Shown: positions 1,725-52,053 of the stretch, piece by piece
Position numbering within the stretch: the first letter of the stretch is position 1
Layout of the letters: every line of letters starts with the position of its first letter
NCBI GenBank assembly: GCA_050115495.1
Contig: JASFQK010000022.1
Location: forward strand, 35,860 to 99,859
Source of the DNA: Phycisphaerae bacterium
GTDB taxonomy: Bacteria; Planctomycetota; Phycisphaerae; UBA1845; Fen-1342
Reading direction: 5' to 3'
Length of the DNA stretch: 64,000 nucleotides
Program-made: the position numbers and the translations under genes
Notes under the pieces: model-generated
The model's input: only the letters and a program-made list of their open reading frames with translations
The model's database searches: none
Told to the model about the DNA's origin: nothing

Positions 1725-3152
1725 ATGCCGTCGGCAGACATCGGTCTCATCGGCCTCGCCGTGATGGGTGAGAACCTGGCGCTGAACATCGAATCGCGCG
1801 GATTCACCGTGGCGGTGTTTAATCGCACGGTGGCGCGGGTGGATGAGTTCATCCAGGGGCGGGCGGCGGGCCAGAACGTCGTCGGTGTGCATTCGCTCGC
1901 CGAGTTGTGCGGCGTGCTGAAGAAGCCGCGGCGGGTGATGCTGATGGTGAAGGCCGGCACGCCGGTCGACGACTACATTGCCCAGTTGCTGCCCTGCCTC
2001 GAACCGGGCGACATCATCATCGACGGCGGCAATTCGAACTACGAAGACTCGACGCGGCGGACGAAACACGTCGAGAGCCGCGGGCTGCTGTTCATCGGGA
2101 CCGGTGTCTCCGGCGGCGAGGAGGGAGCGCTGCGCGGGCCGGCGGTCATGCCCGGCGGGTCGGAGGCCGCGTGGCCGCACGTTCGACCCATCCTTCAGGC
2201 CATCGCGGCCCGCACCGCCGACGGGACGCCTTGTTGCGATTGGGTCGGTCCCGACGGTGCCGGCCATTTCGTAAAGATGGTGCACAATGGCATCGAGTAC
2301 GGCGACATGCAGCTCATCTGCGAGGCGTATCACCTGATGCGGGCGGGGCTGGGGCTGTCGCTGGAGGAGATGAGCGACATCTTCAACGAATGGAGTCGCG
2401 GCGAGCTCGACAGCTATCTCATCGAGATCACGCGCGACATCCTTGACTACCGCGACGAGAACGGTGAGGCGGTGCTCGATTTCATCGAGGACGTCGCGGG
2501 GCAGAAAGGTACGGGGCGCTGGACGGCGCGGGCGGCGCTGGAGACGGGGCAGCCGCTCACGCTCATTGGCGAGGCCGTGTTCGCTCGCTTCCTGTCGGCG
2601 CTCAGGGAGCAGCGCGTCGCCGCCGCAAAGGTGCTGACGCCGGTGGTCGGGCGTTTCACCGGCGACGTTCAGGCCGCGGTGCGCGACCTGCGCGATGCGC
2701 TCTACGCCTCGAAAATCACGAGCTATGCCCAGGGCTTCCAGCTTATGCGGGCCGTCGCCGGTCAGAACGAGTGGAAGCTCGATTACGGCAACGTCGCCTT
2801 GCTCTGGCGGGCCGGCTGCATCATTCGCTCGGTCTTTCTGGAGCGCATCAAGGAGGCGTTCACGCGCGAGCCGGAACTGGTCAACCTGCTGCTCGATCCG
2901 TTCTTCGCCGAGGCGCTGATGCGTGCCCAGCCGGCCTGGCGCCGCACACTGCAAACAGCGATCGAGCTCGGCATTCCGACGCCGGCGATGAGCGCGGCCC
3001 TGGCGTACTTCGACGGCTACCGCACGGAGCGCCTACCGGCCAACCTGCTCCAGGCCCAGCGCGATTACTTCGGGGCGCACACGTACACGCGCATCGACCG
3101 CCCCGGTACATTTCACACGCAATGGACCGCGAAGCCCGGGAGGACGTCCTGA
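1725..3152 (+). CDS. gnd: 6-phosphogluconate dehydrogenase, NADP-dependent, decarboxylating
   Basis: IGLIGLAVMGENLALN, IIIDGGN, GAGHFVKMVHNGIEYGDMQ, QKGTGRWT, QAQRDYFGAHTY. Confidence 0.97.
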   Translation: MPSADIGLIGLAVMGENLALNIESRGFTVAVFNRTVARVDEFIQGRAAGQNVVGVHSLAELCGVLKKPRRVMLMVKAGTPVDDYIAQLLPCLEPGDIIIDGGNSNYEDSTRRTKHVESRGLLFIGTGVSGGEEGALRGPAVMPGGSEAAWPHVRPILQAIAARTADGTPCCDWVGPDGAGHFVKMVHNGIEYGDMQLICEAYHLMRAGLGLSLEEMSDIFNEWSRGELDSYLIEITRDILDYRDENGEAVLDFIEDVAGQKGTGRWTARAALETGQPLTLIGEAVFARFLSALREQRVAAAKVLTPVVGRFTGDVQAAVRDLRDALYASKITSYAQGFQLMRAVAGQNEWKLDYGNVALLWRAGCIIRSVFLERIKEAFTREPELVNLLLDPFFAEALMRAQPAWRRTLQTAIELGIPTPAMSAALAYFDGYRTERLPANLLQAQRDYFGAHTYTRIDRPGTFHTQWTAKPGRTS

Positions 3153-4393
3153 TGGAGCTCAGCACGATCCGCCAGCAGGTCGACCGCTCGCTGACCCGAA
3201 CGCCGATCGTCGACATTCACACGCACATCTACAGCGAGGCATTCGGCGACCTGCTGTTGTGGGGGATCGACGAGTTGCTGACGTATCACTACCTCGTCGC
3301 CGAGCTCTTCCGCTACCGGCCGGATCTGACCTACGCCGACTTCTGGGCCCAGCCCAAGGCGAAACAGGCGGAGCTCATCTGGGACGAGCTGTTCGTCCGC
3401 CACACGCCACTGAGCGAGGCCACCCGCGGCGTGCTCACGACGCTGCGGTTGCTCGAGATCGACGTCGAGCAGCGGAGCCTGGACCGGATCCGGCAGACCT
3501 ATGCCCGCTTCTCGACGGCGGAGTTCATCGATCGCGTTTTCGCCGTCGCCGATGTGCAAATGGCGATCATGACCAACGACCCGTTCAACGCGAAGGAACA
3601 GGCCGTCTGGAACGCGGGCGGCCAACGGGATCCGCGTTTTCGGGCGGCGCTGCGCCTGGACCGGCTGCTCAACGAGTTCCCGCTGAGCCTGCCCGAGCTG
3701 AACGCCCAGGGCTTCCCGGCTTTCAGTCGGCTCGATCGCCGCACCATCACGGCCGTGCGCGACTTCCTGAACACGTGGATTGAGCGCATGCAGCCGGCGT
3801 ATCTCGCCGTGTCGCTGCCGCCGAGCTTTCGGATGGACGACGACTCCGACCGGGCCCAGCTCATCACTGAGTGCGTGCTACCGGTGGCGCAGGAAACGCA
3901 ACGGCCGCTGGCGCTCATGATCGGCGTGAAAAAGCGGGTGAACCCGGAACTCGGCGACGCCGGCGATTCGGTCGGCAAGGCGGACGTCGGCGTGCTGGAA
4001 ACGCTGTGCCGCGATTTCCCGCGGGTGCGCTTCCTGGTAACGATGCTCTCGCGCGAGAACCAGCACGAGCTGTGTGTCGCCGCCCGCAAGTTCCGGAACC
4101 TGCTGCCGTTCGGCTGCTGGTGGTTCCTCAACAACCCCAGCATCATCCGGGAGATCGCGACGGAGCGCTTCGAACTGCTCGGCCTCACGGCGATCCCGCA
4201 GCACAGCGACGCTCGCGTGCTCGACCAGCTCATCTACAAATGGGCGCATTCCCGTGAGATCATCGGCGACGTGCTCGCCCAGCGCTACTTCGACCTGAGC
4301 CGCGCCGGCTGGACGGTCACCGAGGAAGAGATCCAGCGCGACGCGCAGACGATCCTGGGCGGCGGACTGCTGCTGGAACAGCCGTCGGTGTGA
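3152..4393 (+). CDS. uxaC: Uronate (glucuronate) isomerase, amidohydrolase fold, divergent type
   Basis: DIHTH metal motif, LLTYHYL, MTNDPF, GCWWF, QHSDARVLDQLIYKW; TGATG coupling to gnd. Confidence 0.85.
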   Translation: MELSTIRQQVDRSLTRTPIVDIHTHIYSEAFGDLLLWGIDELLTYHYLVAELFRYRPDLTYADFWAQPKAKQAELIWDELFVRHTPLSEATRGVLTTLRLLEIDVEQRSLDRIRQTYARFSTAEFIDRVFAVADVQMAIMTNDPFNAKEQAVWNAGGQRDPRFRAALRLDRLLNEFPLSLPELNAQGFPAFSRLDRRTITAVRDFLNTWIERMQPAYLAVSLPPSFRMDDDSDRAQLITECVLPVAQETQRPLALMIGVKKRVNPELGDAGDSVGKADVGVLETLCRDFPRVRFLVTMLSRENQHELCVAARKFRNLLPFGCWWFLNNPSIIREIATERFELLGLTAIPQHSDARVLDQLIYKWAHSREIIGDVLAQRYFDLSRAGWTVTEEEIQRDAQTILGGGLLLEQPSV

Positions 4394-42125: not shown

Positions 42126-43046
42126 GTGATGGCCAAGGCGCAGACGCCGGCGGGTTTCGGCCGCATCCTCTACTGCCACTGCGCCCACGCGCAGGTTGTG
42201 CCCGAGGCGGTCAGAGAGGAAGTACTGCATCGGCTGCATGCGTCCGGCGTGCCGTTCGACGCGGTTCCCGACCTCTGCGGGCTGGCGGCGAAGCGAGACG
42301 ACAATTTGCGACAACTGGCATCCGAGCGGCCGCTCAGAATCGCCGCCTGCTTCCCCCGTGCCGTGCGCTGGATGCTGGCCACGGCGGGTATCCCCCTGCC
42401 GACCGAGGGCGTCGAGATTCTGAACATGCGGACTATGTCGGCGGATGAGGTGGTCGTCGGCTTGCTGGGAGGCGTGCGTGAAGAACACACAACCCGTGAC
42501 GCGGCGGAGACGGACCAGATTGCGGCCATGCGCACAGCGGTCGAAGCCGGGCCGGCGGACGGCTGGATCCCCTGGTTCCCGGTGATCGACGCCGACCGCT
42601 GCGGCAACTGCCAGCAGTGCCTGTCGTTCTGCCTGTTCGGCGTGTACGGTCACTCGGAAACGGGTCAGGTTGAGGTGCAGCGGCCGGAGAACTGCAAGAC
42701 CGACTGCCCGGCGTGTGCCCGCATCTGCCCCGAGGCGGCCATCATCTTCCCGAAATACGGAGCGCCGCCGATCAACGGGGCCGAAGTGCGGCCCGAGGAC
42801 GTGCAGCGCGAAGCCATGGCGGTCGATGTCTCCGCCCGGCTGGGCGGCAACCTCCACCAGATGTTGCGCGAGCGCAGTGCCCAGGCGAAGCGCCGCTTCT
42901 CGCCGGACCAAACGCAGGAGCGAGCCCTGGAGGAGCGGAAGCGCTGTATGTGCAAGTGCCGCACGGCGACCGGCGTGCCGCTGCAGACGCCCGGCTCCCG
43001 TTCGGGCGAGGCGTCCGGGGGCGAGCCGCCGCGATCCACCGACTGA
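42126..43046 (+). CDS. Fe-S protein: HdrA-N-terminus-like Cys module plus 2x[4Fe-4S] ferredoxin domain
   Basis: YCHC...DLC...AACFPR; CGNCQQCLSFC; CKTDCPACARICP. Confidence 0.8.
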   Translation: MMAKAQTPAGFGRILYCHCAHAQVVPEAVREEVLHRLHASGVPFDAVPDLCGLAAKRDDNLRQLASERPLRIAACFPRAVRWMLATAGIPLPTEGVEILNMRTMSADEVVVGLLGGVREEHTTRDAAETDQIAAMRTAVEAGPADGWIPWFPVIDADRCGNCQQCLSFCLFGVYGHSETGQVEVQRPENCKTDCPACARICPEAAIIFPKYGAPPINGAEVRPEDVQREAMAVDVSARLGGNLHQMLRERSAQAKRRFSPDQTQERALEERKRCMCKCRTATGVPLQTPGSRSGEASGGEPPRSTD

Positions 43047-43059
43047 GGAAGGCACGCGC

Positions 43060-44247
43060 ATGCTGCTGCCCCTGGCGAAACGGCTGCTGACCGAGGTGGA
43101 TCGGCGCGCCCTGTGGAAGTTCATGTGGAACTTCGGCTTCCACGGGATGCGGGCCGTGCAGCGCTTCAAACGCCGGCTGCGCAGCGGCGTGCACTTCCCG
43201 CCGTTTCTCTACGTTTCGATCATCAATTCGTGCCAGCTTCGTTGCCAGGGCTGCTGGGTGGACGTCGCGGCCCCGCGGCGGATGATCACACTGGAGGAGA
43301 TGAACCGGCTCATCGACGAGGCGAAGCGCTACGGCAACCGCTTCTTCGGTTTGCTCGGCGGTGAGCCCCTGCTGCACCCGCAGTTGTTCGAAATCCTCGA
43401 AGCCCATCCGGACTGCTACTTCCAGCTCTTCACCAACGGGCACTTGCTCACCGATGAGGCGGCGCGGCGGCTGCGGGCGGTCGGCAACACGACACCGCTC
43501 ATCAGCATCGAAGGGTCGGAGGCGGCCAGCGATGAGCGGCGGGGCCAGTCGCACGTCCTGGAGCGGACGCTGGCGGGGCTGGAGAACTGCCGCCGGCACA
43601 AGCTGATTCTCGGCGTGGCCACGAGCGTGTGTCAGACGAACTTCGACCTGGTCAGCGAGACGTGGCTCCGGCGGCTGATCGAACTGGGCGTGCACTACGT
43701 GTGGTTCTACACGTACCGGGTCATCGGCCCGCGGCCGACGCCGGAGCTGGCCCTCCGCCGGGAGCAAATGCGGCAGCTTCGCGAGTTCATCGTAACCATG
43801 CGGAGCCGGCTGCCGATCGGCATCGTCGACGCCTACTGGGACGCTGACGGCGTAGCCCTCTGCCCGATGGCGGCGGGGATCAGCCACCACATCGGCCCCG
43901 GCGGGCACATCGAGCCCTGCCCCATCATCCAGTTCGCCACGGAGACGATCCGCGACGGTGGCCTCTATGATCTGCTGATCCGATCGGAATTTGTTCGTGC
44001 CTGCCGGGAAACCGCCGCAGCCACGACGCGCGGGTGTATCCTGTTGGAGAGGCCGGACCTGGTGCAGGAGCTGGTTCGCACCCACGGTGCGGCGGACACG
44101 ACCCAACGGGCCACCGGCCTGGCGGAGCTTGAGGCCATGGTGCCGCGCGAGAGCCAGCACGACCCCGAGTTCCAGGTGCCGGAGCGGCACTGGCTGTACC
44201 GGTTCGCCAAGCGACATTGGTTCTTCGGATTCGGTGCATACGGATGA
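43060..44247 (+). CDS. Radical SAM protein with SPASM/twitch-like C-terminus
   Basis: CQLRCQGC, LGGEP, FTNG, ISIEG; C-terminal CPMA...IEPCP...GC. Confidence 0.9.
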   Translation: MLLPLAKRLLTEVDRRALWKFMWNFGFHGMRAVQRFKRRLRSGVHFPPFLYVSIINSCQLRCQGCWVDVAAPRRMITLEEMNRLIDEAKRYGNRFFGLLGGEPLLHPQLFEILEAHPDCYFQLFTNGHLLTDEAARRLRAVGNTTPLISIEGSEAASDERRGQSHVLERTLAGLENCRRHKLILGVATSVCQTNFDLVSETWLRRLIELGVHYVWFYTYRVIGPRPTPELALRREQMRQLREFIVTMRSRLPIGIVDAYWDADGVALCPMAAGISHHIGPGGHIEPCPIIQFATETIRDGGLYDLLIRSEFVRACRETAAATTRGCILLERPDLVQELVRTHGAADTTQRATGLAELEAMVPRESQHDPEFQVPERHWLYRFAKRHWFFGFGAYG

Positions 44248-45971
44248 CACACGACGCGATGTCGATGCAGAATTCCGATACGCCGCCGGCGGCGCCGCCG
44301 AAGTCGGTGCGCCCGCCGCAGGAGGGCATCCCGCCGACGTATGCGGAGCGCGAGCGGATCCGGCTGGCGGCGCGTGAATACGTGGCGTCCGCGCGTCCGG
44401 TGCCGCCGCTGTCGCTGACCGAGCTGCACGAGCACGCGGCGCGACTCGGTGCCCAGCTCGGACTGGACGGGCAATATCGCGACTTCACATCGGTGCTGCT
44501 CAACAGCGAAGTGTGGCGCGACACGCTGGCGGGCGTTCCGTATTCGCGGCGTCTACTGCTATTGCCCAAGTGCCTGCGGTCGGCGGACGCGTGCCCGGCG
44601 TCGTTTGACGAGCTCGGGCTCGTGTGCCAGGGCTGCGGGCGCTGCGCGATCGACGAGTTGCAGACCGAGGCCGAGCAGCTTGGGTATGCCGTCCTCTGCG
44701 CCGAGGGGTCGGCCCGGGTGATCGAGCTCATCCAGACCGGGGGCATCGACGCGATCATCGGCATCAGTTGCCTGTCCGTGCTGGAGAAGGCGTTTCCGCA
44801 CATGCAATCCGCCGGCATTCCGGGCGTCGCCATCCCCCTGCTACAGGACGGGTGCCACGACACGTCGCTCGACATGGCGTGGGCGTGGGATGCGATTCAC
44901 CTGACCAGCGATGCACGCTCGTGCCCGCTGGACCTCGACGGCCTGCGACAGACGGTGGACGCGTGGTTTGAGCCGGCGGCGCTCGAGGCCATCCTCGGCC
45001 CGGTGCAATCGCCGACGGAACGCATCGCCCGCGACTGGCTGGCCGGCGCCGGGAAGCGCTGGCGGCCGTTCCTTACGGCGTGCACGTGTGCCGCGCTGGC
45101 GCCGGACCCGCGGGCCCCGCTGTCGGAGGCGGTGCAGCGGATCGCCGTTGCGGTGGAGTGCTTCCACAAGGCGTCGCTGGTGCACGACGACATCGAGGAC
45201 GGCGACGAGTTGCGCTATGGGGCCCCGACGTTGCACGCGGAACACGGTGTGCCGGTGGCGTTGAACGTGGGCGATCTGCTCATCGGCGAGGGCTATCGCC
45301 AGCTCGTGGGCATCGATGTTCCGCCGGCCGTGCGGACGGAAATAGTGCGCATCGCCGCCGCGGGACAGTGCGTTTCCTGTCTCGGGCAGGGCGCCGAGTT
45401 GCATTGGGCCCGCAACGGTGGGCCGCTGTCGTCACAGGCGGTGCTCGACATCTTCCGGCAGAAGACGGCCCCGGCCTTCGAGGTGGCACTGCGGCTCGGC
45501 GCGGCGTACGCGGGTGCAACGCCGGACGTGGCGGAGGTTCTGGCACAATGCAGCGCCGCATTGGGCATCGCCTATCAGATTCGCGACGACCTGGATGACT
45601 TGCAGCCGGGGCACGCTCCGGACGATCTGACCGGGCGGCGGCTGTCGTTGCCGCTGGCCGTGGCGTACGAGTGCACAACCGGCGACGCGCACACCGCGGT
45701 GGAGGCGGCGTGGCAGCGGACCGAGGGACTGGGCGACCGGCTGCGGCAGATCATTGCGGAGTCCGGTGCGGAGGCGCATTGCCGGGAGCTGCTCGATTCG
45801 TATCGGGAGGAAGCGCTCCGCCATCTGGCGAAGTTGGAGAATCCCGATCTGCGGAACCTGCTGCGCCGCGTGGTGGCCAGGATCTACGGGGTCGATTTCA
45901 GGGGCTGGTGTCGTGAGTCTGCGTCTGGACATGCTGCAAACCGCGCGGCGGGCACCGCATCTGCTGGGTGA
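44244..45971 (+). CDS. DUF116-like Cys-rich domain fused to a trans-polyprenyl diphosphate synthase
   Basis: LPKCLR..C....CQGCGRC..ISC..GC; GKRWRP, HDDIED (first Asp-rich motif), GQG.EL, KT, YQIRDDLDD (second Asp-rich motif); ATGA overlap. Confidence 0.87.
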   Translation: MTHDAMSMQNSDTPPAAPPKSVRPPQEGIPPTYAERERIRLAAREYVASARPVPPLSLTELHEHAARLGAQLGLDGQYRDFTSVLLNSEVWRDTLAGVPYSRRLLLLPKCLRSADACPASFDELGLVCQGCGRCAIDELQTEAEQLGYAVLCAEGSARVIELIQTGGIDAIIGISCLSVLEKAFPHMQSAGIPGVAIPLLQDGCHDTSLDMAWAWDAIHLTSDARSCPLDLDGLRQTVDAWFEPAALEAILGPVQSPTERIARDWLAGAGKRWRPFLTACTCAALAPDPRAPLSEAVQRIAVAVECFHKASLVHDDIEDGDELRYGAPTLHAEHGVPVALNVGDLLIGEGYRQLVGIDVPPAVRTEIVRIAAAGQCVSCLGQGAELHWARNGGPLSSQAVLDIFRQKTAPAFEVALRLGAAYAGATPDVAEVLAQCSAALGIAYQIRDDLDDLQPGHAPDDLTGRRLSLPLAVAYECTTGDAHTAVEAAWQRTEGLGDRLRQIIAESGAEAHCRELLDSYREEALRHLAKLENPDLRNLLRRVVARIYGVDFRGWCRESASGHAANRAAGTASAG

Positions 45972-46797
45972 GTCGACCGACCTCGTCCGTCGTTTCCTGC
46001 ATAGCCAGATGAACGCGGATGGTGGGTTTCGCGATCGCGCCGGCCAGAGCGACGTCTACTACACCGTGTTCGGCTTGCAGGGGCTGATCGCACTGGACGC
46101 TGACGTGCCACTGGGGCCTGTCGCGGAGTATCTCGCTTCGCTGGGTTCGGGGACGCAATTCGACCTGGTTCACGCCGCGAGTCTGGCACGTTGTTGGGCC
46201 GCCCTGCCGCCAGCGGAGAAAGCCGGGATGCCGCGTGCCGAGCTTCTGCGACATCTGGCCACGTTTCGCAGCGACGACGGGGCGTACGACATCGCGACAG
46301 GCAGCACGCACGGCACGCTGTACGGCTGCTTCCTCGCACTGGGGGCGTACGAAGACCTCGACGCCGACCTGCCCGAGCCCGCGGCGTTGGTGACTTGTGT
46401 CGAACGACTGCGGACGGATGACGGCGGCTACGCCAACGGCACGGACCTGCCCGTGGGACTGGTGCCAACCACGGCGGCGGCGGTTGCGCTGCTGCGAAAC
46501 CTCGGCCGGCCTGTACCGCCGGAAGTCGGGACGTGGCTCCTGGCACAGCATTGTGCCGGCGGCGGGTTTCTGGCCACGCCCGCGGCGCCGATGCCGGATC
46601 TGCTGTCGACCGCCACGGCGCTCTTCGCACTGCACAGCCTGCACGCCGATCTCGCAGCCGTGCGCGAACCGTGCCTCGACTTCATCAACAGCTTGTGGAC
46701 CAATCGCGGGGCGTTCTGCGGCAACTGGGCCGACGACGTCGTGGACTGCGAGTACACGTACTACGCCCTTCTGGCACTGGGATGTCTGAGTCAGTGA
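45913..46797 (+). CDS. Prenyltransferase/squalene-oxidase-repeat protein (single alpha/alpha barrel)
   Basis: Repeats QMNADGGF, SDDGAY, TDDGGY, AGGGF; SDVYYT, DCEYTYY; no DxDD motif. Confidence 0.8.
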   Translation: MSLRLDMLQTARRAPHLLGESTDLVRRFLHSQMNADGGFRDRAGQSDVYYTVFGLQGLIALDADVPLGPVAEYLASLGSGTQFDLVHAASLARCWAALPPAEKAGMPRAELLRHLATFRSDDGAYDIATGSTHGTLYGCFLALGAYEDLDADLPEPAALVTCVERLRTDDGGYANGTDLPVGLVPTTAAAVALLRNLGRPVPPEVGTWLLAQHCAGGGFLATPAAPMPDLLSTATALFALHSLHADLAAVREPCLDFINSLWTNRGAFCGNWADDVVDCEYTYYALLALGCLSQ

Positions 46798-48641
46798 CGA
46801 TTCGCAGTACGGATACCGACGCCGTGGCCGAGACGCTGGCTAACGCCCGCCAACGTCTGCTCGCGGCCCGCACGGACGCGGGTCATTGGGAGGGCCTGTT
46901 ATCCAGCAGTGCCCTTTCGACCGCGACGGCGTCGTTTGCGCTGTGGTTGTATGCCGAGCGTTCGTCTGGCGCACGCGACGGGCCGAATCGCGCCGAATGT
47001 CGCCGGCTGGCGCAGGCTGGCGCGCACTGGCTGGCCGGTCACCAGAATGCCGACGGCGGCTGGGGCGACACGCCGGAGAGTCCGAGCAACATCAGCACGA
47101 CGGTGCTGGGCTGGGCGGCATTGCACGCCATCGACGGTGATGAGGCCGTGCAGAGCGCTCGCGAGAAGGCCGACGCCTGTGTGGACCGTGCCGCCGGCGG
47201 ACGTGACGCAGACACGCTGACGCGGGCGATCGTCCACCGCTACGGCGACGACCGGACGTTCTCGGCACCGATTCTCACGATGTGCGCGTTGGCCGGCCGG
47301 CTGGGCCCGGATGCGCAGGCTTGGCGACACGTGGCGCAATTGCCATTCGAGTTGGCGGCGTTGCCGCAATCGTGGTTTCAGTTCCTGCGCCTGCCAGTCG
47401 TCAGCTACGCCCTGCCCGCGCTGATCGCCATCGGTCGCGTGCGTCACCATTGCCGGCCGACGCGCAATCCGCTGCTGCGCGCGTTGCGCTGGGCCGCGCG
47501 TCGCCGAACGGAACGAGTCCTGGAACGAATTCAGCCACCCGGCGGCGGGTTCCTCGAAGCGACGCCACTGACGAGCTTCGTGCTCATGAGCCTGGCCGGC
47601 AGCGGGCAGGCGGATGGCGCAGTTGCGACCCGCGCGGCGCAGTTCCTGGCGCGGTCCGTGCGGGCCGATGGTAGTTGGCCGATTGATACGAACCTGGCGA
47701 CGTGGGTCACGACACTCTCCATCCAAGCGCTCGCGACTGCCGGAGCACTGTCCGAGTCGCTGAGCGACGGCGAGCGGCATTCCATCAAAACGTGGCTGCT
47801 CGGACAGCAGTACCGGCAGCGGCACCTCTACACGGGCGCCGATCCCGGCGGCTGGGCCTGGACGGATCTGCCCGGCGGCGTGCCCGACGCGGACGACACG
47901 GCGGGAGCACTCATCGCGCTGCATCAGTTCGGCGCCGAGGACGCCGCAGATGCCGCCGCTGACGGAATCCGCTGGCTGCTGGGTCTTCAGAATCGTGATG
48001 GGGGCATCCCGACGTTTTGCCGAGGCTGGGGCCGCCTGCCGTTTGACCGCAGCACGCCGGAGATCACGGCCCACGCTCTGCTGGCGTGGAGTCTGTGGCA
48101 CGACTCGTTGCCTGCAACACTGGCGAGCAAGGTGCACTACGCCACGCGCCGAGCCCTGGCGTACCTCCGCCGACAACAACGACTGGACGGGGCATGGCTA
48201 CCGCTCTGGTTCGGCAATCAGCATGCGCCAAACGAGCGGAATCCGACGTACGGCACGGCACGCGTCGTGCTGGCGCTGAACCGCTGCCGAACGCACGTGT
48301 CGACGACACGCGAGCCCGTCACCCGCGGCGTTCGCTGGCTGCTCACGGCGCAGAACGCCGATGGCGGCTGGGGCGGCGCACCGGGCGTGCCATCATCCAT
48401 TGAAGAGACCGGCCAGGCCGTGCAGGCGCTGGTGGCGGCGCACGCCGCGGCGCAGAATGAGGTCCTCCCTGCGATCGACCGCGGCACACACTGGCTCGCC
48501 CAGACCACGCACGCCGGACGAGATTTCCCCGCCGCTCCCATCGGCCTGTACTTCGCCAACCTGTGGTATGCCGAGCGGCTCTACCCCCAGATCGCCACCG
48601 TCGCCGCTTTGGGCTTGAAAAAGACTGCCTCGTGCGCATAA
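46782..48641 (+). CDS. Squalene-hopene-cyclase-like class II terpene cyclase
   Basis: GHWEG, QW repeats (QNADGGWG, ADGSW, QNRDGG, LDGAW, QNADGGWG), GGWAW...PDADDT (DxDD), YGT, LYFANLWY. Confidence 0.87.
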   Translation: MSESVTIRSTDTDAVAETLANARQRLLAARTDAGHWEGLLSSSALSTATASFALWLYAERSSGARDGPNRAECRRLAQAGAHWLAGHQNADGGWGDTPESPSNISTTVLGWAALHAIDGDEAVQSAREKADACVDRAAGGRDADTLTRAIVHRYGDDRTFSAPILTMCALAGRLGPDAQAWRHVAQLPFELAALPQSWFQFLRLPVVSYALPALIAIGRVRHHCRPTRNPLLRALRWAARRRTERVLERIQPPGGGFLEATPLTSFVLMSLAGSGQADGAVATRAAQFLARSVRADGSWPIDTNLATWVTTLSIQALATAGALSESLSDGERHSIKTWLLGQQYRQRHLYTGADPGGWAWTDLPGGVPDADDTAGALIALHQFGAEDAADAAADGIRWLLGLQNRDGGIPTFCRGWGRLPFDRSTPEITAHALLAWSLWHDSLPATLASKVHYATRRALAYLRRQQRLDGAWLPLWFGNQHAPNERNPTYGTARVVLALNRCRTHVSTTREPVTRGVRWLLTAQNADGGWGGAPGVPSSIEETGQAVQALVAAHAAAQNEVLPAIDRGTHWLAQTTHAGRDFPAAPIGLYFANLWYAERLYPQIATVAALGLKKTASCA

Positions 48642-48860
48642 TGGAGTGCGGTTGCGGAACCGATGACTCGTTTGCAGAAAGGAGGTATCCCGTGCGTTTC
48701 GTTGCATTGACGCTTCTCGTGGAGCCTTTCTGCGCAGTCAGCCGCGGCTGATTCCCGCCTGATCGCTGGCTGATCGCAGCCAGGCTCCTCCCTGTTGGTT
48801 TGTGATTCGTGCACACGACCAGGGACGACGCTGCGCGCGTCGCCCGAGACGAGGAGCGAT
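48615..48860 (+). promoter_or_regulatory. Promoter and attenuator-like leader of the rbfA-like/rtcB pair
   Basis: TTGAAA 48615-20, 16 bp, CATAAT 48637-42; GCTCCTC (48784-90) complements the SD GAGGAGC (48851-57); competing pairs GGAGCCT/AGGCTCC and GCAGAAAGG/CCTTTCTGC. Confidence 0.6.
48692..48751 (+). CDS. Putative 19-aa leader peptide MRFVALTLLVEPFCAVSRG
   Basis: Near-perfect SD AAAGGAGGT (48678-86), 5 nt before GTG 48692; TGA at 48749-51. Confidence 0.6.
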   Translation: MRFVALTLLVEPFCAVSRG

Positions 48861-49280
48861 ATGCCTTCGCACAAGCGAAAGAAGACGGACCTGCGCGCGC
48901 TGTGCGCGCAACTGCATCCAGATGACGGCGTCGACCCGCGCGAGGACAGGCGGCGCGACGCCGAGTACGAGAGGAAGCCGGACCGTAAGATCTGGCAGCT
49001 CTGCAAGCAAGTGGAACAGACGCTGCAACTGGCCTTCGGAGCCCTGCCGCAAGCCGCAGCGCTCGCTGGCGTAACCGTGTCGGAAGTAACGCCGGCGCCG
49101 AACGCCGGGCGCTTGCGGGTGGTGATCGCCGTGCCCGTTCCCGACCGCGCGGCCCAGGTGCTCGCGATCGTCCGGCAGCACGCCCGCCAACTGCGTGCCG
49201 AAGTCGCCGCGGCCATCACACGGCGTCGTGCACCGGAGCTCACGTTCGACGTGCTGGTGGAAGGAGGTGACCGTGGCTGA
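48861..49280 (+). CDS. Divergent ribosome-binding factor A (RbfA)-like protein
   Basis: GAGGAG SD; RKIWQLCKQV helix, VTVSEV.PAPNAGRLRV, LRAEVAAAITRRRAPELTF (RbfA-type R..PEL.F); not in an infB-truB context. Confidence 0.72.
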   Translation: MPSHKRKKTDLRALCAQLHPDDGVDPREDRRRDAEYERKPDRKIWQLCKQVEQTLQLAFGALPQAAALAGVTVSEVTPAPNAGRLRVVIAVPVPDRAAQVLAIVRQHARQLRAEVAAAITRRRAPELTFDVLVEGGDRG

Positions 49281-50409
49281 GTGTGCCATGATGAAGATGT
49301 GGGTAACACAGCCGCCCGAGCCGGCGGTTCGCCAGACGCTGGACCGACTCGCCCGCGCTCCCGACGTCGTGCACGTGGCGGTTATGCCTGACGTCCACCT
49401 CGCAGCCGGCGTCAGCAACGGTGTTGTCGTCGCCACCCGGCAGCTGGTCTATCCGGCGGCTGTCGGGGGCGACATTGGCTGTGGATTCGGCGTTGTCGCG
49501 CTCAACGGGAGCGCAGCCACACTGAAACGCCGGCCCGCGGCGGAAGCCGTGCTGGACGCCCTGCCGACCGCGGCACCGGTCATGCGTCACAAGCGGCGAG
49601 ATGGTCTTCCGGAGTATCCGGACGACCTCGCCGTCGACCGGCTCAGCGCCCCTGCCCTGGCCGCCCAGGCCGCCAGTGAGGGACGGTTGGAGCTGGGCAC
49701 GCTCGGGCGCGGAAATCACTTCCTGGAGTTGCAGGAGGACGATGAGGGTCGGTTGTGGCTGATGGTGCACAGCGGCTCGCGTGCCATGGGACAACACATC
49801 GCCAACCATCACACACGATCCGCGACATTCGCCGGCGGCGGTCTCGCCTGGCTCGACGTGGAGACGGACGCCGGACAAGCGTACCTCCGCGACGCCGGCT
49901 GGGCCCGTGCCTACGCCGCCGAGAGTCGGCGACGCATGCTCGTAGCGGTCGCCGAAGTGGTCTCCGACATCCTGGGCATCGAGCCGAACTGGGAGACGTT
50001 CCTGAACACCGACCACAATCACGTTCAGTCGGAGCAGCACGGCGACGCGACGCTGTGGGTGCACCGGAAAGGCGCCAACGTGGCGCAGGATGGCGCAGAC
50101 AACGTCATTCCGGGATCGATGGCGACACCCACGTACCACGTCGCCGGCCGCGGTGAGCCTTCGGCGCTGGCGTCGAGCTCGCATGGTGCCGGCCGCCGAC
50201 TTAGCCGTGGCGCAGCCCGCGCCCAGGTCCGCCGAAAGGACCTGGCTCGGCAGCTCGCGGACGTCTGGATCGATCCGCGCACCGCGGGGCGGCTGGTGGA
50301 CGAAGCGCCGGTGGCCTACAAGGACATCGACGCCGTTATGCGTGCCCAGCGTGATCTCGTTCGCATCGTTCGCCGACTGCGCCCGGTGCTCTGCTACAAG
50401 GGTGCCTGA
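49273..50409 (+). CDS. rtcB: RtcB-family RNA 3'-phosphate/5'-OH ligase (compact form)
   Basis: MPDVH, VGGDIGCG, GTLGRGNHFLE, HSGSR, HNH, HRKGA, IPGSM, SHGAGR, DEAPVAYK; AAGGAGGT SD; overlaps the upstream gene. Confidence 0.94.
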   Translation: MAECAMMKMWVTQPPEPAVRQTLDRLARAPDVVHVAVMPDVHLAAGVSNGVVVATRQLVYPAAVGGDIGCGFGVVALNGSAATLKRRPAAEAVLDALPTAAPVMRHKRRDGLPEYPDDLAVDRLSAPALAAQAASEGRLELGTLGRGNHFLELQEDDEGRLWLMVHSGSRAMGQHIANHHTRSATFAGGGLAWLDVETDAGQAYLRDAGWARAYAAESRRRMLVAVAEVVSDILGIEPNWETFLNTDHNHVQSEQHGDATLWVHRKGANVAQDGADNVIPGSMATPTYHVAGRGEPSALASSSHGAGRRLSRGAARAQVRRKDLARQLADVWIDPRTAGRLVDEAPVAYKDIDAVMRAQRDLVRIVRRLRPVLCYKGA

Positions 50410-50443
50410 ACCTGACCCGCCCACTCGCCAAGCTACAGCGCCC

Positions 50444-50488
50444 CCTCGAACCGGCGGCTCGACATGTTGGTCGAGCCGCCGATCGAGG
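50444..50488 (+). terminator. Strong GC-rich hairpin after rtcB (terminator or stabiliser; no U tract)
   Basis: CGGCGGCTCGAC (50452-63) / GTCGAGCCGCCG (50470-81), extended by CCTCGA/TCGAGG. Confidence 0.45.
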
Positions 50489-50772
50489 CGGCGACTGCGC
50501 CCAATAACGAAGCCACCCGACCGGCGCCGGTCACTGGCACTCGCCATCGCCGCCTCCAAGCCAGCGGCACGACATTCATGTAACTCATTTCCTAAGAGCA
50601 ACTTCCGCGCGGATCCCACTCAGTCGGTCGGAACTCTAGCGGCGTCGGCGGTTTCCGCCACGACGACCGCGACATCCTCGTCGCCCCCGCCGCCCAGGTT
50701 CATTTCTAGTTTCTGTTTGCGTTTCTGAAATTCTGATTGAAATCGACTCCGGGACTCGATACCCTGGCATCC

Positions 50773-52053
50773 ATGGCCACGTCCAAGACACACGACAAGC
50801 CCCCACACGCGTTCGAAGAGGACGCCCTCCGGGCGCTCCAGAACATTCGCGAGGCCTTCGCCGCCCTGCTGGAGAGCCTGCCACAGCGTGTCGGCCGGGC
50901 CCATGAGGTCGCCAAGGTCCTTGGTATCCACCGCAAGCTCGGCTGGCAGATCGCCAAGCTCGTATACGAGTCCGATCCGCTCGCCGCCGCCCAACACGTT
51001 CCCGGGGCGGCGTCGATTCGGCGGTTCCTCGACGCCGTCGCGAAGCAGAAGGTTAACGCCGGGCTGATCGAATCCGCCCGTGCGGCCGTGGAGAGCTTCG
51101 AGCGTCTGGTCGAGGTCCATGCCGGTGACCGCGAGTCGCTGAACCTCATGCTCACGGGCTGGGGCGGCGAAGCCGCCCGCAAGGCGGACCTCGTGCAGCG
51201 CCGGGCCGCCTTCTCGGCCGGCAGCTACATCTGGGGCGTGCAGGCGAAGACGTCACTGTCCACCGTCTTCCTGTCGCCGTCCACGACGCGAGAGGACTTC
51301 TTCGACCTGGCACACATCATGGGATTCGTGGAGCTTCGCCGGATGCGCTCGCAGGTGTGCTGGCCGCTCCGCTATTCGAAGCACTTCGCGGACGACGCCA
51401 GCGAGCTGGAACAGCCGTTGCGCGAGCCGCTGGACGATGCGCCCGTCGCCGCCGACGAGCCGCCGCTGCTGCGCCGCTTCTGCTCGCAACCCGTGCCGGA
51501 AACGCGGCGGCGCGTCTTCGACGGCGGCTGGGTGGTCGACGAGATCACGCCGGGGCCCGTCGGCAACACGGGGGCCATCGACTGCTTCGTAGGCGAGTTC
51601 TGCCGCGCGGTCATGTGCAAGTATCGAACGGAGCAGAGCTGGACGTGGGCGCTCGGGCGCGTGGTTCGCGCACCTTGTGAGGTGCTGATCCTCGATCAGT
51701 TCATACACGAGGACGTGTTCGGCTCCATACAGCCGCAGTTGCACATGTACCGCGACCTCATCGGCGCTCCGCCGACGGGCGCCACATCCCGGCAGAAAGA
51801 GGACGAAATGCCGGTCTTCGAAACGGTGCGGCACCTCGGCCAGGGGCTCTCCGGAATCCGCATGCCCGACGTGCATCGGTACGCGGAGATGGTGAGCTAC
51901 GTGTTTGAGCGATTCGGCTGGGACCCGAACCGCTTCCACGTGTATCGGGCGCGCGTGGAGTATCCGCCCCTGCCCACGATGGTGTGCATGGAGCACCCGC
52001 TGCCCGAACGGCCGCAGCCGGCCCGCGGCACAGACGAGTCTAACACTCCATGA
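50773..52053 (+). CDS. Hypothetical cytoplasmic protein with a possible N-terminal helix-turn-helix
   Basis: Long ORF with coding-like codon bias; AHEVAKVLGIHRKLGWQI is HTH-like; AT-rich upstream segment. Confidence 0.6.
   Translation: MATSKTHDKPPHAFEEDALRALQNIREAFAALLESLPQRVGRAHEVAKVLGIHRKLGWQIAKLVYESDPLAAAQHVPGAASIRRFLDAVAKQKVNAGLIESARAAVESFERLVEVHAGDRESLNLMLTGWGGEAARKADLVQRRAAFSAGSYIWGVQAKTSLSTVFLSPSTTREDFFDLAHIMGFVELRRMRSQVCWPLRYSKHFADDASELEQPLREPLDDAPVAADEPPLLRRFCSQPVPETRRRVFDGGWVVDEITPGPVGNTGAIDCFVGEFCRAVMCKYRTEQSWTWALGRVVRAPCEVLILDQFIHEDVFGSIQPQLHMYRDLIGAPPTGATSRQKEDEMPVFETVRHLGQGLSGIRMPDVHRYAEMVSYVFERFGWDPNRFHVYRARVEYPPLPTMVCMEHPLPERPQPARGTDESNTP

Follow-up and report, generated by a model that had tools for sequence, protein, structure and literature searches.

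The window analysed here is a stretch of 64,000 nucleotides (nt) of contig JASFQK010000022.1 from a Phycisphaerae bacterium. It contains a pair of overlapping genes on the + strand, the first encoding a small protein related to the ribosome-binding factor RbfA and the second a compact RtcB RNA ligase. The RbfA-like gene (48861..49280) starts with ATG at 48861, ends with TGA at 49278-49280 and encodes 139 amino acids (aa), of which residues 1-40 form an N-terminal extension with the motif LCxxxxxDDGxDPR and residues 41-133 form an RbfA core (KH type II). The RtcB gene (49273..50409) is read in a different frame and encodes 378 aa from GTG 49273, or 373 aa from ATG 49288. Since the database orthologs of this RtcB are mostly 378 aa long and their N-termini agree with the GTG 49273 start, the two genes overlap by 8 nt (GTGGCTGA), and a GGAGG sequence stands 5 nt upstream of the GTG.

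A diverged RbfA-like protein and a compact RtcB

A preliminary description of the locus had assigned a divergent RbfA fold to the small protein, and the structure prediction bears this assignment out. In the AlphaFold2 (AF2) model, built on a family alignment of 67 rows, residues 41-133 have a predicted local distance difference test score (pLDDT) of about 90 and follow the order helix-strand-strand-helix-helix-strand, which is the order of RbfA (KH type II). When the model was compared with the PDB by Foldseek, the 18 best matches were all RbfA, including 30S-bound and mitochondrial forms (for 7afq_V, template-modelling score 0.82 and root-mean-square deviation 2.0 Å), and the KH domain of Era ranked only 19th. 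PDB titles among the matches show 30S-RbfA complexes. A sequence search of the protein against PDB chains returned no relevant match, so that RbfA structures were found by the fold search alone. Among the aligned relatives, 63 of 67 matched the Pfam model RBFA (PF02033) at E<=0.01, the best at 1.7e-12.

The family has three signatures, DRKxxQLCxQV, PAPDA(S/G)RL and LRxEVAxAIxRRRAPEL. The C-terminal motif (LRxEVAxAIxRRRAPEL-F) aligns with the canonical RbfA of the same genome, to which the RbfA-like protein is 23% identical over 60 aligned columns, and the best-conserved part of the protein is the RbfA RNA-binding core. The extension of about 40 residues is acidic and cysteine-bearing, has C15, D22, G23 and P26 invariant across the family, and is modelled at low confidence, as disordered, when the protein is alone. 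Judging from the modelled fold and the family-wide matches, we conclude that the small protein is an RbfA-fold paralog which scores below the curated family cut-offs, yet whose homology is clear at the family level.

The same genome has a canonical rbfA (91.4 bits) that follows infB on contig C27. Thus, the RbfA-like gene is not the only rbfA of the genome, and it lies between a cyclase-like gene and the RtcB gene, outside the single-copy infB/truB context of the housekeeping gene. Strong RbfA matches (E<=1e-18) were also found in 16 of the 17 other genomes that carry the pair (see below), the exception being an assembly that is 86% complete and split into 1010 contigs. In public records these paralogs are named 'ribosome-binding factor A' or left unnamed.

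The compact RtcB matched PF01139 with 272.9 bits (cut-off 27) over model positions 3-426. Alignment with the P. horikoshii and T. thermophilus RtcB (2epg and 4dwr chains) showed that D35, H37, D62, C65, N143/H144, H161, H243 and H299 (in the 373-aa numbering) are kept; these we take to be the metal-binding Asp, Cys and His residues and the histidine nucleophile of the HGAGR motif. Among 71 RtcB orthologs D35, H37, D62, N143, H144, H161, H243 and H299 are invariant, and C65 is present in at least 90%. The RtcB overlapped by the RbfA-like reading frame therefore has all its catalytic motifs, as had been described. More specific NCBIfam models were not reached, namely PRK09588 (191 bits, cut-off 407) and the PrfH-linked release_rtcB model TIGR03073 (141.4 bits, cut-off 271.8), and PrfH itself was not found above its cut-off anywhere in the genome.

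The genome encodes three RtcBs with a different partner each time: archease, RtcA and the RbfA-like protein. The archease-RtcB pair lies at contig C8:22986-24855 and the RtcB-RtcA pair at contig C19:96961-100674. Around the pair studied here, no rtcA, archease, prfH, rtcR-like or Ro60/TROVE gene was found among the open reading frames (ORFs) of at least 200 aa scanned within about 10 kb on either side (21 and 5 ORFs), shorter ORFs being outside the scan; within that range, the absence of these genes that the preliminary description had reported was confirmed. PADLOC gave no match for the RbfA-like protein, the RtcB or the ORF downstream. Co-folding of the RtcB (71-row alignment) with the RbfA-like protein (67 rows) gave a score of 0.01 against a mark of 0.32 in a run without controls, a result that counts neither for nor against a contact.

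Conservation and distribution of the pair

To follow the pair from the RtcB side, we searched 400 other genomes of the phylum Planctomycetota. The query returned a top tier in 17 of the 400 genomes (48-52% identity, at least 316 bits), below which identity dropped to 44% or less. In 17 of these 17 genomes the RbfA-like gene stood directly upstream and ended at the start of the RtcB. Including the present genome, the pair was found in 18 of 401 sampled genomes, patchily and across many families, and such a distribution fits an accessory function in stress or conflict. One database ortholog of the RtcB (P0195, 56% identical) carries the label Myxococcales.

From the RbfA-like side, we scanned species-representative genomes and obtained 80 loci, nearly all of which have a Planctomycetota label (Phycisphaerae, Pirellulales, Planctomycetaceae, Isosphaeraceae and Gemmataceae). 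This RtcB clade lay immediately downstream in 46 of the 80, so that the linkage is found in other genomes from both sides. Five loci (Pirellula-type) had a long-type RtcB instead, with a 4-nt overlap in L132; 19 were extension-bearing without an RtcB, 3 of which stop at a contig edge; and 10 were short forms without the extension in unrelated contexts. Stop and start overlapped in 45 of the 46 RtcB-coupled loci (by 4 nt in 27, 8 nt in 15, 11 nt in 2 and 1 nt in 1), and across these 46 loci, the higher the identity of one protein to its counterpart in the window, the higher that of the other tended to be (r = 0.84). Clustering of all neighbouring ORFs across the loci yielded no third conserved gene, and the genes that flank the pair in the window occurred in 0 of 102 related loci.

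A sister RtcB clade (41-44% identity, one genome family) is preceded by a second RbfA-like lineage, which is only 15% identical to the first and was aligned with it by hhalign at a probability of 96.5%; PF02033 was matched in 4 of 4 of its members, and the gene overlaps the start of the sister RtcB in 4 of 5 loci. Taken together, the RbfA-like gene and RtcB are a conserved, mobile, self-contained and translationally coupled two-gene module of Planctomycetota.

Two loci depart from the simple pair. At L146 (G213:C77, 1608-4159) the RbfA-like gene is followed by a SpoU-family methyltransferase-like ORF and a 402-aa RtcB with gaps of at most 10 nt. The middle ORF matches the C-terminal half of the Pfam SpoU model only, and the three-gene order recalls repair systems that methylate before ligating. 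At L155 (G309:C10, about 2029-3245) the pair is apparently decayed, with similarity to the RbfA-like protein and RtcB spread over three frames; another RtcB is encoded elsewhere in that genome.

The extension-bearing paralogs without a neighbouring RtcB (orphans) were frequent in loci with a Gemmataceae or Isosphaeraceae label, and several lie divergent to a class-V aminotransferase gene. RtcA was encoded on the opposite strand within about 1.5 kb of three orphans: in L136 and L141 (and in L100 by similarity only) it is convergent, about 1.4 kb downstream of the extension-bearing gene, with no adjacent RtcB. In L084 (3605-4699, labelled Gemmataceae) and L159 (625-1719) a DraRnl-type ATP RNA ligase lies 200 nt downstream of the extension-bearing gene, the L084 ligase scoring 183 bits against TIGR02306 (cut-off 151). 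We rejected this apparent replacement of RtcB as independent support, since of 20 metagenome relatives only the 97%-identical L159 has the ligase, which confines the arrangement to one species-level lineage. The short RbfA paralogs (L015, L138, L143, L016/L128 and others) keep DRKxxQLCxQV and are missing the N-terminal extension. Several of them stand beside a cysteine-desulfurase/FeS_assembly_P pair or an ECF sigma factor, and the genome family with short paralogs has two RbfA matches per genome.

Promoter, leader and surroundings of the pair

The pair had been described as having its own promoter and leader, and this description is upheld by the features found on the + strand upstream of it. 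A sigma-70-like promoter-like site (48615..48642; TTGAAA, 16-nt spacer, CATAAT) was found once against 0.1 expected in shuffled sequences. Its -10 box shares nucleotides with the stop codon that ends the cyclase-like gene upstream, and the CATAAT/CATACT box is kept in an alignment of six leaders. The leader between this site and the RbfA-like start is about 210-219 nt long and is conserved far above neutral expectation in loci with proteins only 62-71% identical.

The leader contains an upstream ORF (uORF) of 19 codons (48692..48751, MRFVALTLLVEPFCAVSRG) behind an extended Shine-Dalgarno (SD) sequence, AAAGGAGGT, at 48678-48686. The start, frame and stop of the uORF are kept in 6 of 6 aligned leaders. 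In hairpin P1 (48673..48734), predicted by RNAalifold on the six leaders, the SD and start of the uORF (GCAGAAAGGAGGT...GTG) are paired with codons 11-15 of the same uORF (GAGCCTTTCTGCG). On 15 leaders, 89.5% of the P1 cells were paired, against 43-63% with the partner slid. Nine cells were changed on both sides, a number reached by 0 of 500 shuffles, with compensatory changes at three inner pairs. Sequence conservation inside the uORF may serve the hairpin rather than the peptide. We also counted SD-led uORFs of 14-24 codons lying 150-310 nt upstream, with the reverse complement as control: they occurred in 34 of 46 RtcB-coupled loci (control 8 of 46), in 8 of 18 extension-bearing orphans (control 3 of 18) and in 2 of 10 short forms (control 2 of 10).

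Further downstream in the leader are a small conserved hairpin (48766..48783, CTGGCTG-ATCG-CAGCCAG) with seven predicted pairs, one of which shows compensatory UA/CG changes, and a predicted long-range pairing (48784..48857) of GCTCC at 48784-48788 with GGAGC at 48853-48857 in the SD region of the RbfA-like gene, with an inner hairpin between the two arms. According to the RNAalifold prediction, the five GCTCC/GGAGC pairs are kept in 5-6 of the 6 sequences, and 3 pairs of the inner hairpin show compensatory changes. A search of Rfam gave no match at E<=1 within 47500-51500. The leader as a signal for a regulon was rejected because its motif is single-copy in the genome.

Downstream of the pair, 30 nt past the RtcB stop, is a GC-rich nested hairpin on the + strand (50439..50493) with a perfect 12-bp stem (50452-50481) inside an 11-bp stem. 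The hairpin noted in the preliminary description is therefore present; it has no T tract and for that reason was not called by the intrinsic-terminator scan.

Upstream of the promoter-like site, the window carries an isoprenoid/hopanoid-type cluster (42670-48641) that encodes radical SAM, DUF116-polyprenyl synthetase fusion, prenyltransferase-repeat and squalene-hopene-cyclase-like proteins. The downstream neighbours among the scanned ORFs of at least 200 aa are a 438-aa ORF, an FGE-sulfatase-domain protein and histidine kinases. The 438-aa ORF (50737-52053) could be placed in no NCBIfam or PADLOC family, matched no Pfam model above its curated cut-off, and was found next to the pair in no related locus examined.

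A possible role in ribosome repair and its alternatives

RbfA sits on the 30S subunit at the neck/decoding region and the 3' end of the 16S ribosomal RNA (rRNA). This place on the 30S subunit, taken with the repair of 16S rRNA by RtcB2-PrfH, makes ribosome-directed RNA repair, in which the RbfA paralog is the ribosome-recognising part, the most economical mechanism for the pair, and we give it about an even chance. According to this proposal, the diverged RbfA paralog would be translated together with the compact RtcB, a 3'-phosphate/5'-OH RNA ligase. With its RNA-binding core kept, the paralog would bind small subunits in which the 16S rRNA is broken in or near the normal site of RbfA (the 3' minor domain, the decoding helix and the 3' tail), and would hold or mark the broken subunits while RtcB reseals the break. 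The structured leader probably sets expression, as its SD-led uORF and SD-sequestering hairpins could tie synthesis to the state of translation initiation. We infer the 30S binding, the rRNA substrate, any contact between the two proteins and the signal of the leader; for the 30S binding, what is seen in the sequence is only the conserved basic and LR...RRRAPEL motif.

A more specific form of the proposal is a three-part operon in which the paralog recognises cut 16S rRNA (3' minor domain/decoding helix), RtcB reseals it, and the leader switches on expression when initiation-competent 30S subunits, those with an intact anti-SD end, are short, by means of a super-SD uORF held in an SD/anti-SD-like hairpin. 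We put this forward tentatively, as a possibility that is rather less than likely. A precedent for the repair step is the RtcB2-PrfH system, which is described in the cited passages as repairing 16S rRNA cut by colicin E3 at the decoding centre (PMC9304027, PMC9223846, PMC13166195).

Several observations weigh against ribosome-directed repair by this pair. The 139-aa protein itself scores 26.3 bits (E 9e-6) against PF02033 and 20 bits (E 4e-4) against the NCBIfam RbfA model NF001802, under their cut-offs of 34.7 and 142. RtcB mends tRNA and other RNAs too, so that the enzyme alone does not fix the substrate. The second RbfA-like lineage, upstream of the sister RtcB clade, has no N-terminal extension, which makes the extension dispensable for the pairing of an RbfA-like protein with RtcB. 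About 66 extension-bearing loci have sufficient sequence downstream of the gene, and in 15 of these no RNA ligase lies within about 3 kb; in the clade around L084 no ligase is nearby in 19 of 20 relatives, many of them on short contigs. When five orphan genomes were searched for RtcB, three had only a distant long-type RtcB, one had none at E<=1e-10, and one had two compact RtcB copies elsewhere. It follows from the ligase-less loci and this search that the paralog is able to work without this RtcB. The orphans argue for a function of the RbfA-like protein of its own, which RtcB has joined in many lineages. Thus, the earlier suggestion that the paralog is an alternative adaptor, presenting broken rRNA to RtcB, is plausible and keeps the support of the fold, the paralogy and the linkage, but in its strict form it is weakened by the ligase-less paralogs.

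Instead of recognising ribosomes, the RbfA-like protein could be a dedicated, archease-like cofactor of this RtcB, activating or loading the enzyme, perhaps through its acidic Cys-bearing extension, with the ribosome uninvolved. The tight translational coupling suggests a 1:1 complex, other RtcBs have helpers of their own (archease, RtcA) where the compact RtcB has only the RbfA-like protein, and the invariant residues of an extension modelled as disordered alone could be read in the same way. Nevertheless, some genomes that lack this RtcB clade still encode an extension-bearing paralog, the partner of the sister clade dispenses with the extension, and it is the RNA-binding core that is best conserved, so we consider such a cofactor unlikely.

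It is also unlikely, in our estimate, that the target of the KH-type core has shifted to some other broken RNA (tRNA, tmRNA or mRNA), which the paralog would deliver to RtcB in place of the ribosome. The residues it has in common with RbfA make up the RbfA-specific C-terminal motif and not generic KH features, and the best structural matches were all RbfA, with Era KH ranked only 19th. These points have to be set against the general binding of single-stranded RNA by KH type II domains, the strong divergence of the paralog from canonical RbfA and the link between damaged tRNAs and the Rtc repair operon (PMC7790460).

The leader and the known role of RbfA bear on a different alternative, in which the pair serves small-subunit biogenesis and not repair: under cold or other stress the paralog would stand in for RbfA or help it, and RtcB would ligate intermediates of rRNA processing. 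In favour are the roles of RbfA in assembly and cold shock and the likeness of the long, structured leader to leaders that sense temperature or translation. However, a patchy presence in 18 of 401 genomes is hard to square with a core maturation step, and we know of no ligation step in bacterial 16S maturation; we regard this alternative as quite improbable. Finally, gene-order inertia, that is, adjacency without joint function, might be suggested by the paralogs that stand alone but is very unlikely, given the 17/17 linkage from the RtcB side, the overlap in 45/46 loci, the unconserved flanks and a pairing kept across two deeply diverged lineages.

In the literature searched, we found no report of an RbfA-RtcB pairing, in agreement with the preliminary description, which knew of no characterised system of this kind; a 2016 survey of RNA-repair neighbourhoods, outside that search, might list the pair. 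PMC8421152 has a single mention of RbfA, unrelated to RtcB, and RbfA does not come up where PMC6514570 deals with RtcB. Among the papers covered by the search, PrfH-RtcB2 alone is presented as a bacterial system that mends ribosomes after a cut. If ribosome-directed repair by the RbfA-RtcB pair is true, the pair would add a second, unrelated ribosome-binding partner of RtcB and make in-place repair of ribosomes a recurring solution. It would also offer a handle on the rRNA lesions that planctomycetes face and give a function to a family now labelled RbfA or unnamed. Should the leader prove to sense translation capacity, it would count as a new regulatory element. The pair is present in cultured strains, among them Adhaeretor mobilis HG15A2, Lacipirellula limnantheis I41 and Aeoliella straminimaris (loci L088, L095 and L119), which makes direct experiments feasible.

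We class the pair as a candidate RtcB repair module with a putative ribosome-binding partner, the RbfA-type partner being new. Compared with canonical RbfA (infB-rbfA-truB), the paralog has the fold and the C-terminal motif in common but adds the 40-residue extension with its invariant Cys, Asp, Gly and Pro together with DRKxxQLCxQV and PAPDA(S/G)RL, falls under the family cut-offs and lies in another genomic context, the canonical copy being kept elsewhere in the genome. As in the archease-RtcB and RtcB-RtcA(-RtcR) operons, both of which pairs are found elsewhere in this genome, RtcB is encoded with a small helper; here, however, archease, RtcA and RtcR are not at the locus, and the fold of the RbfA-like helper is unrelated to archease. 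The leader resembles leader-peptide and SD-sequestering attenuators (erm, cat and ribosomal-protein operon leaders) in placing a short SD-led uORF within alternative hairpins ahead of a translation-related operon, but it has no counterpart among the Rfam families searched.

The closest likeness is to PrfH-RtcB2. Both are two-gene operons of sporadic distribution that combine a compact RtcB with a paralog of a ribosome-binding translation factor, and the proposed logic is the same, a damaged ribosome being recognised and its 16S rRNA then sealed. The compact RtcB does not belong to the PrfH-linked type by its TIGR03073 score (141.4 bits against the cut-off of 271.8), and no PrfH (TIGR03072) exceeds its cut-off in the genome or is found at the locus. 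The partner here has the RbfA fold (KH type II) and is not a release-factor homolog, and a partner of the RbfA type would presumably work on the free 30S subunit rather than on a stalled 70S ribosome.

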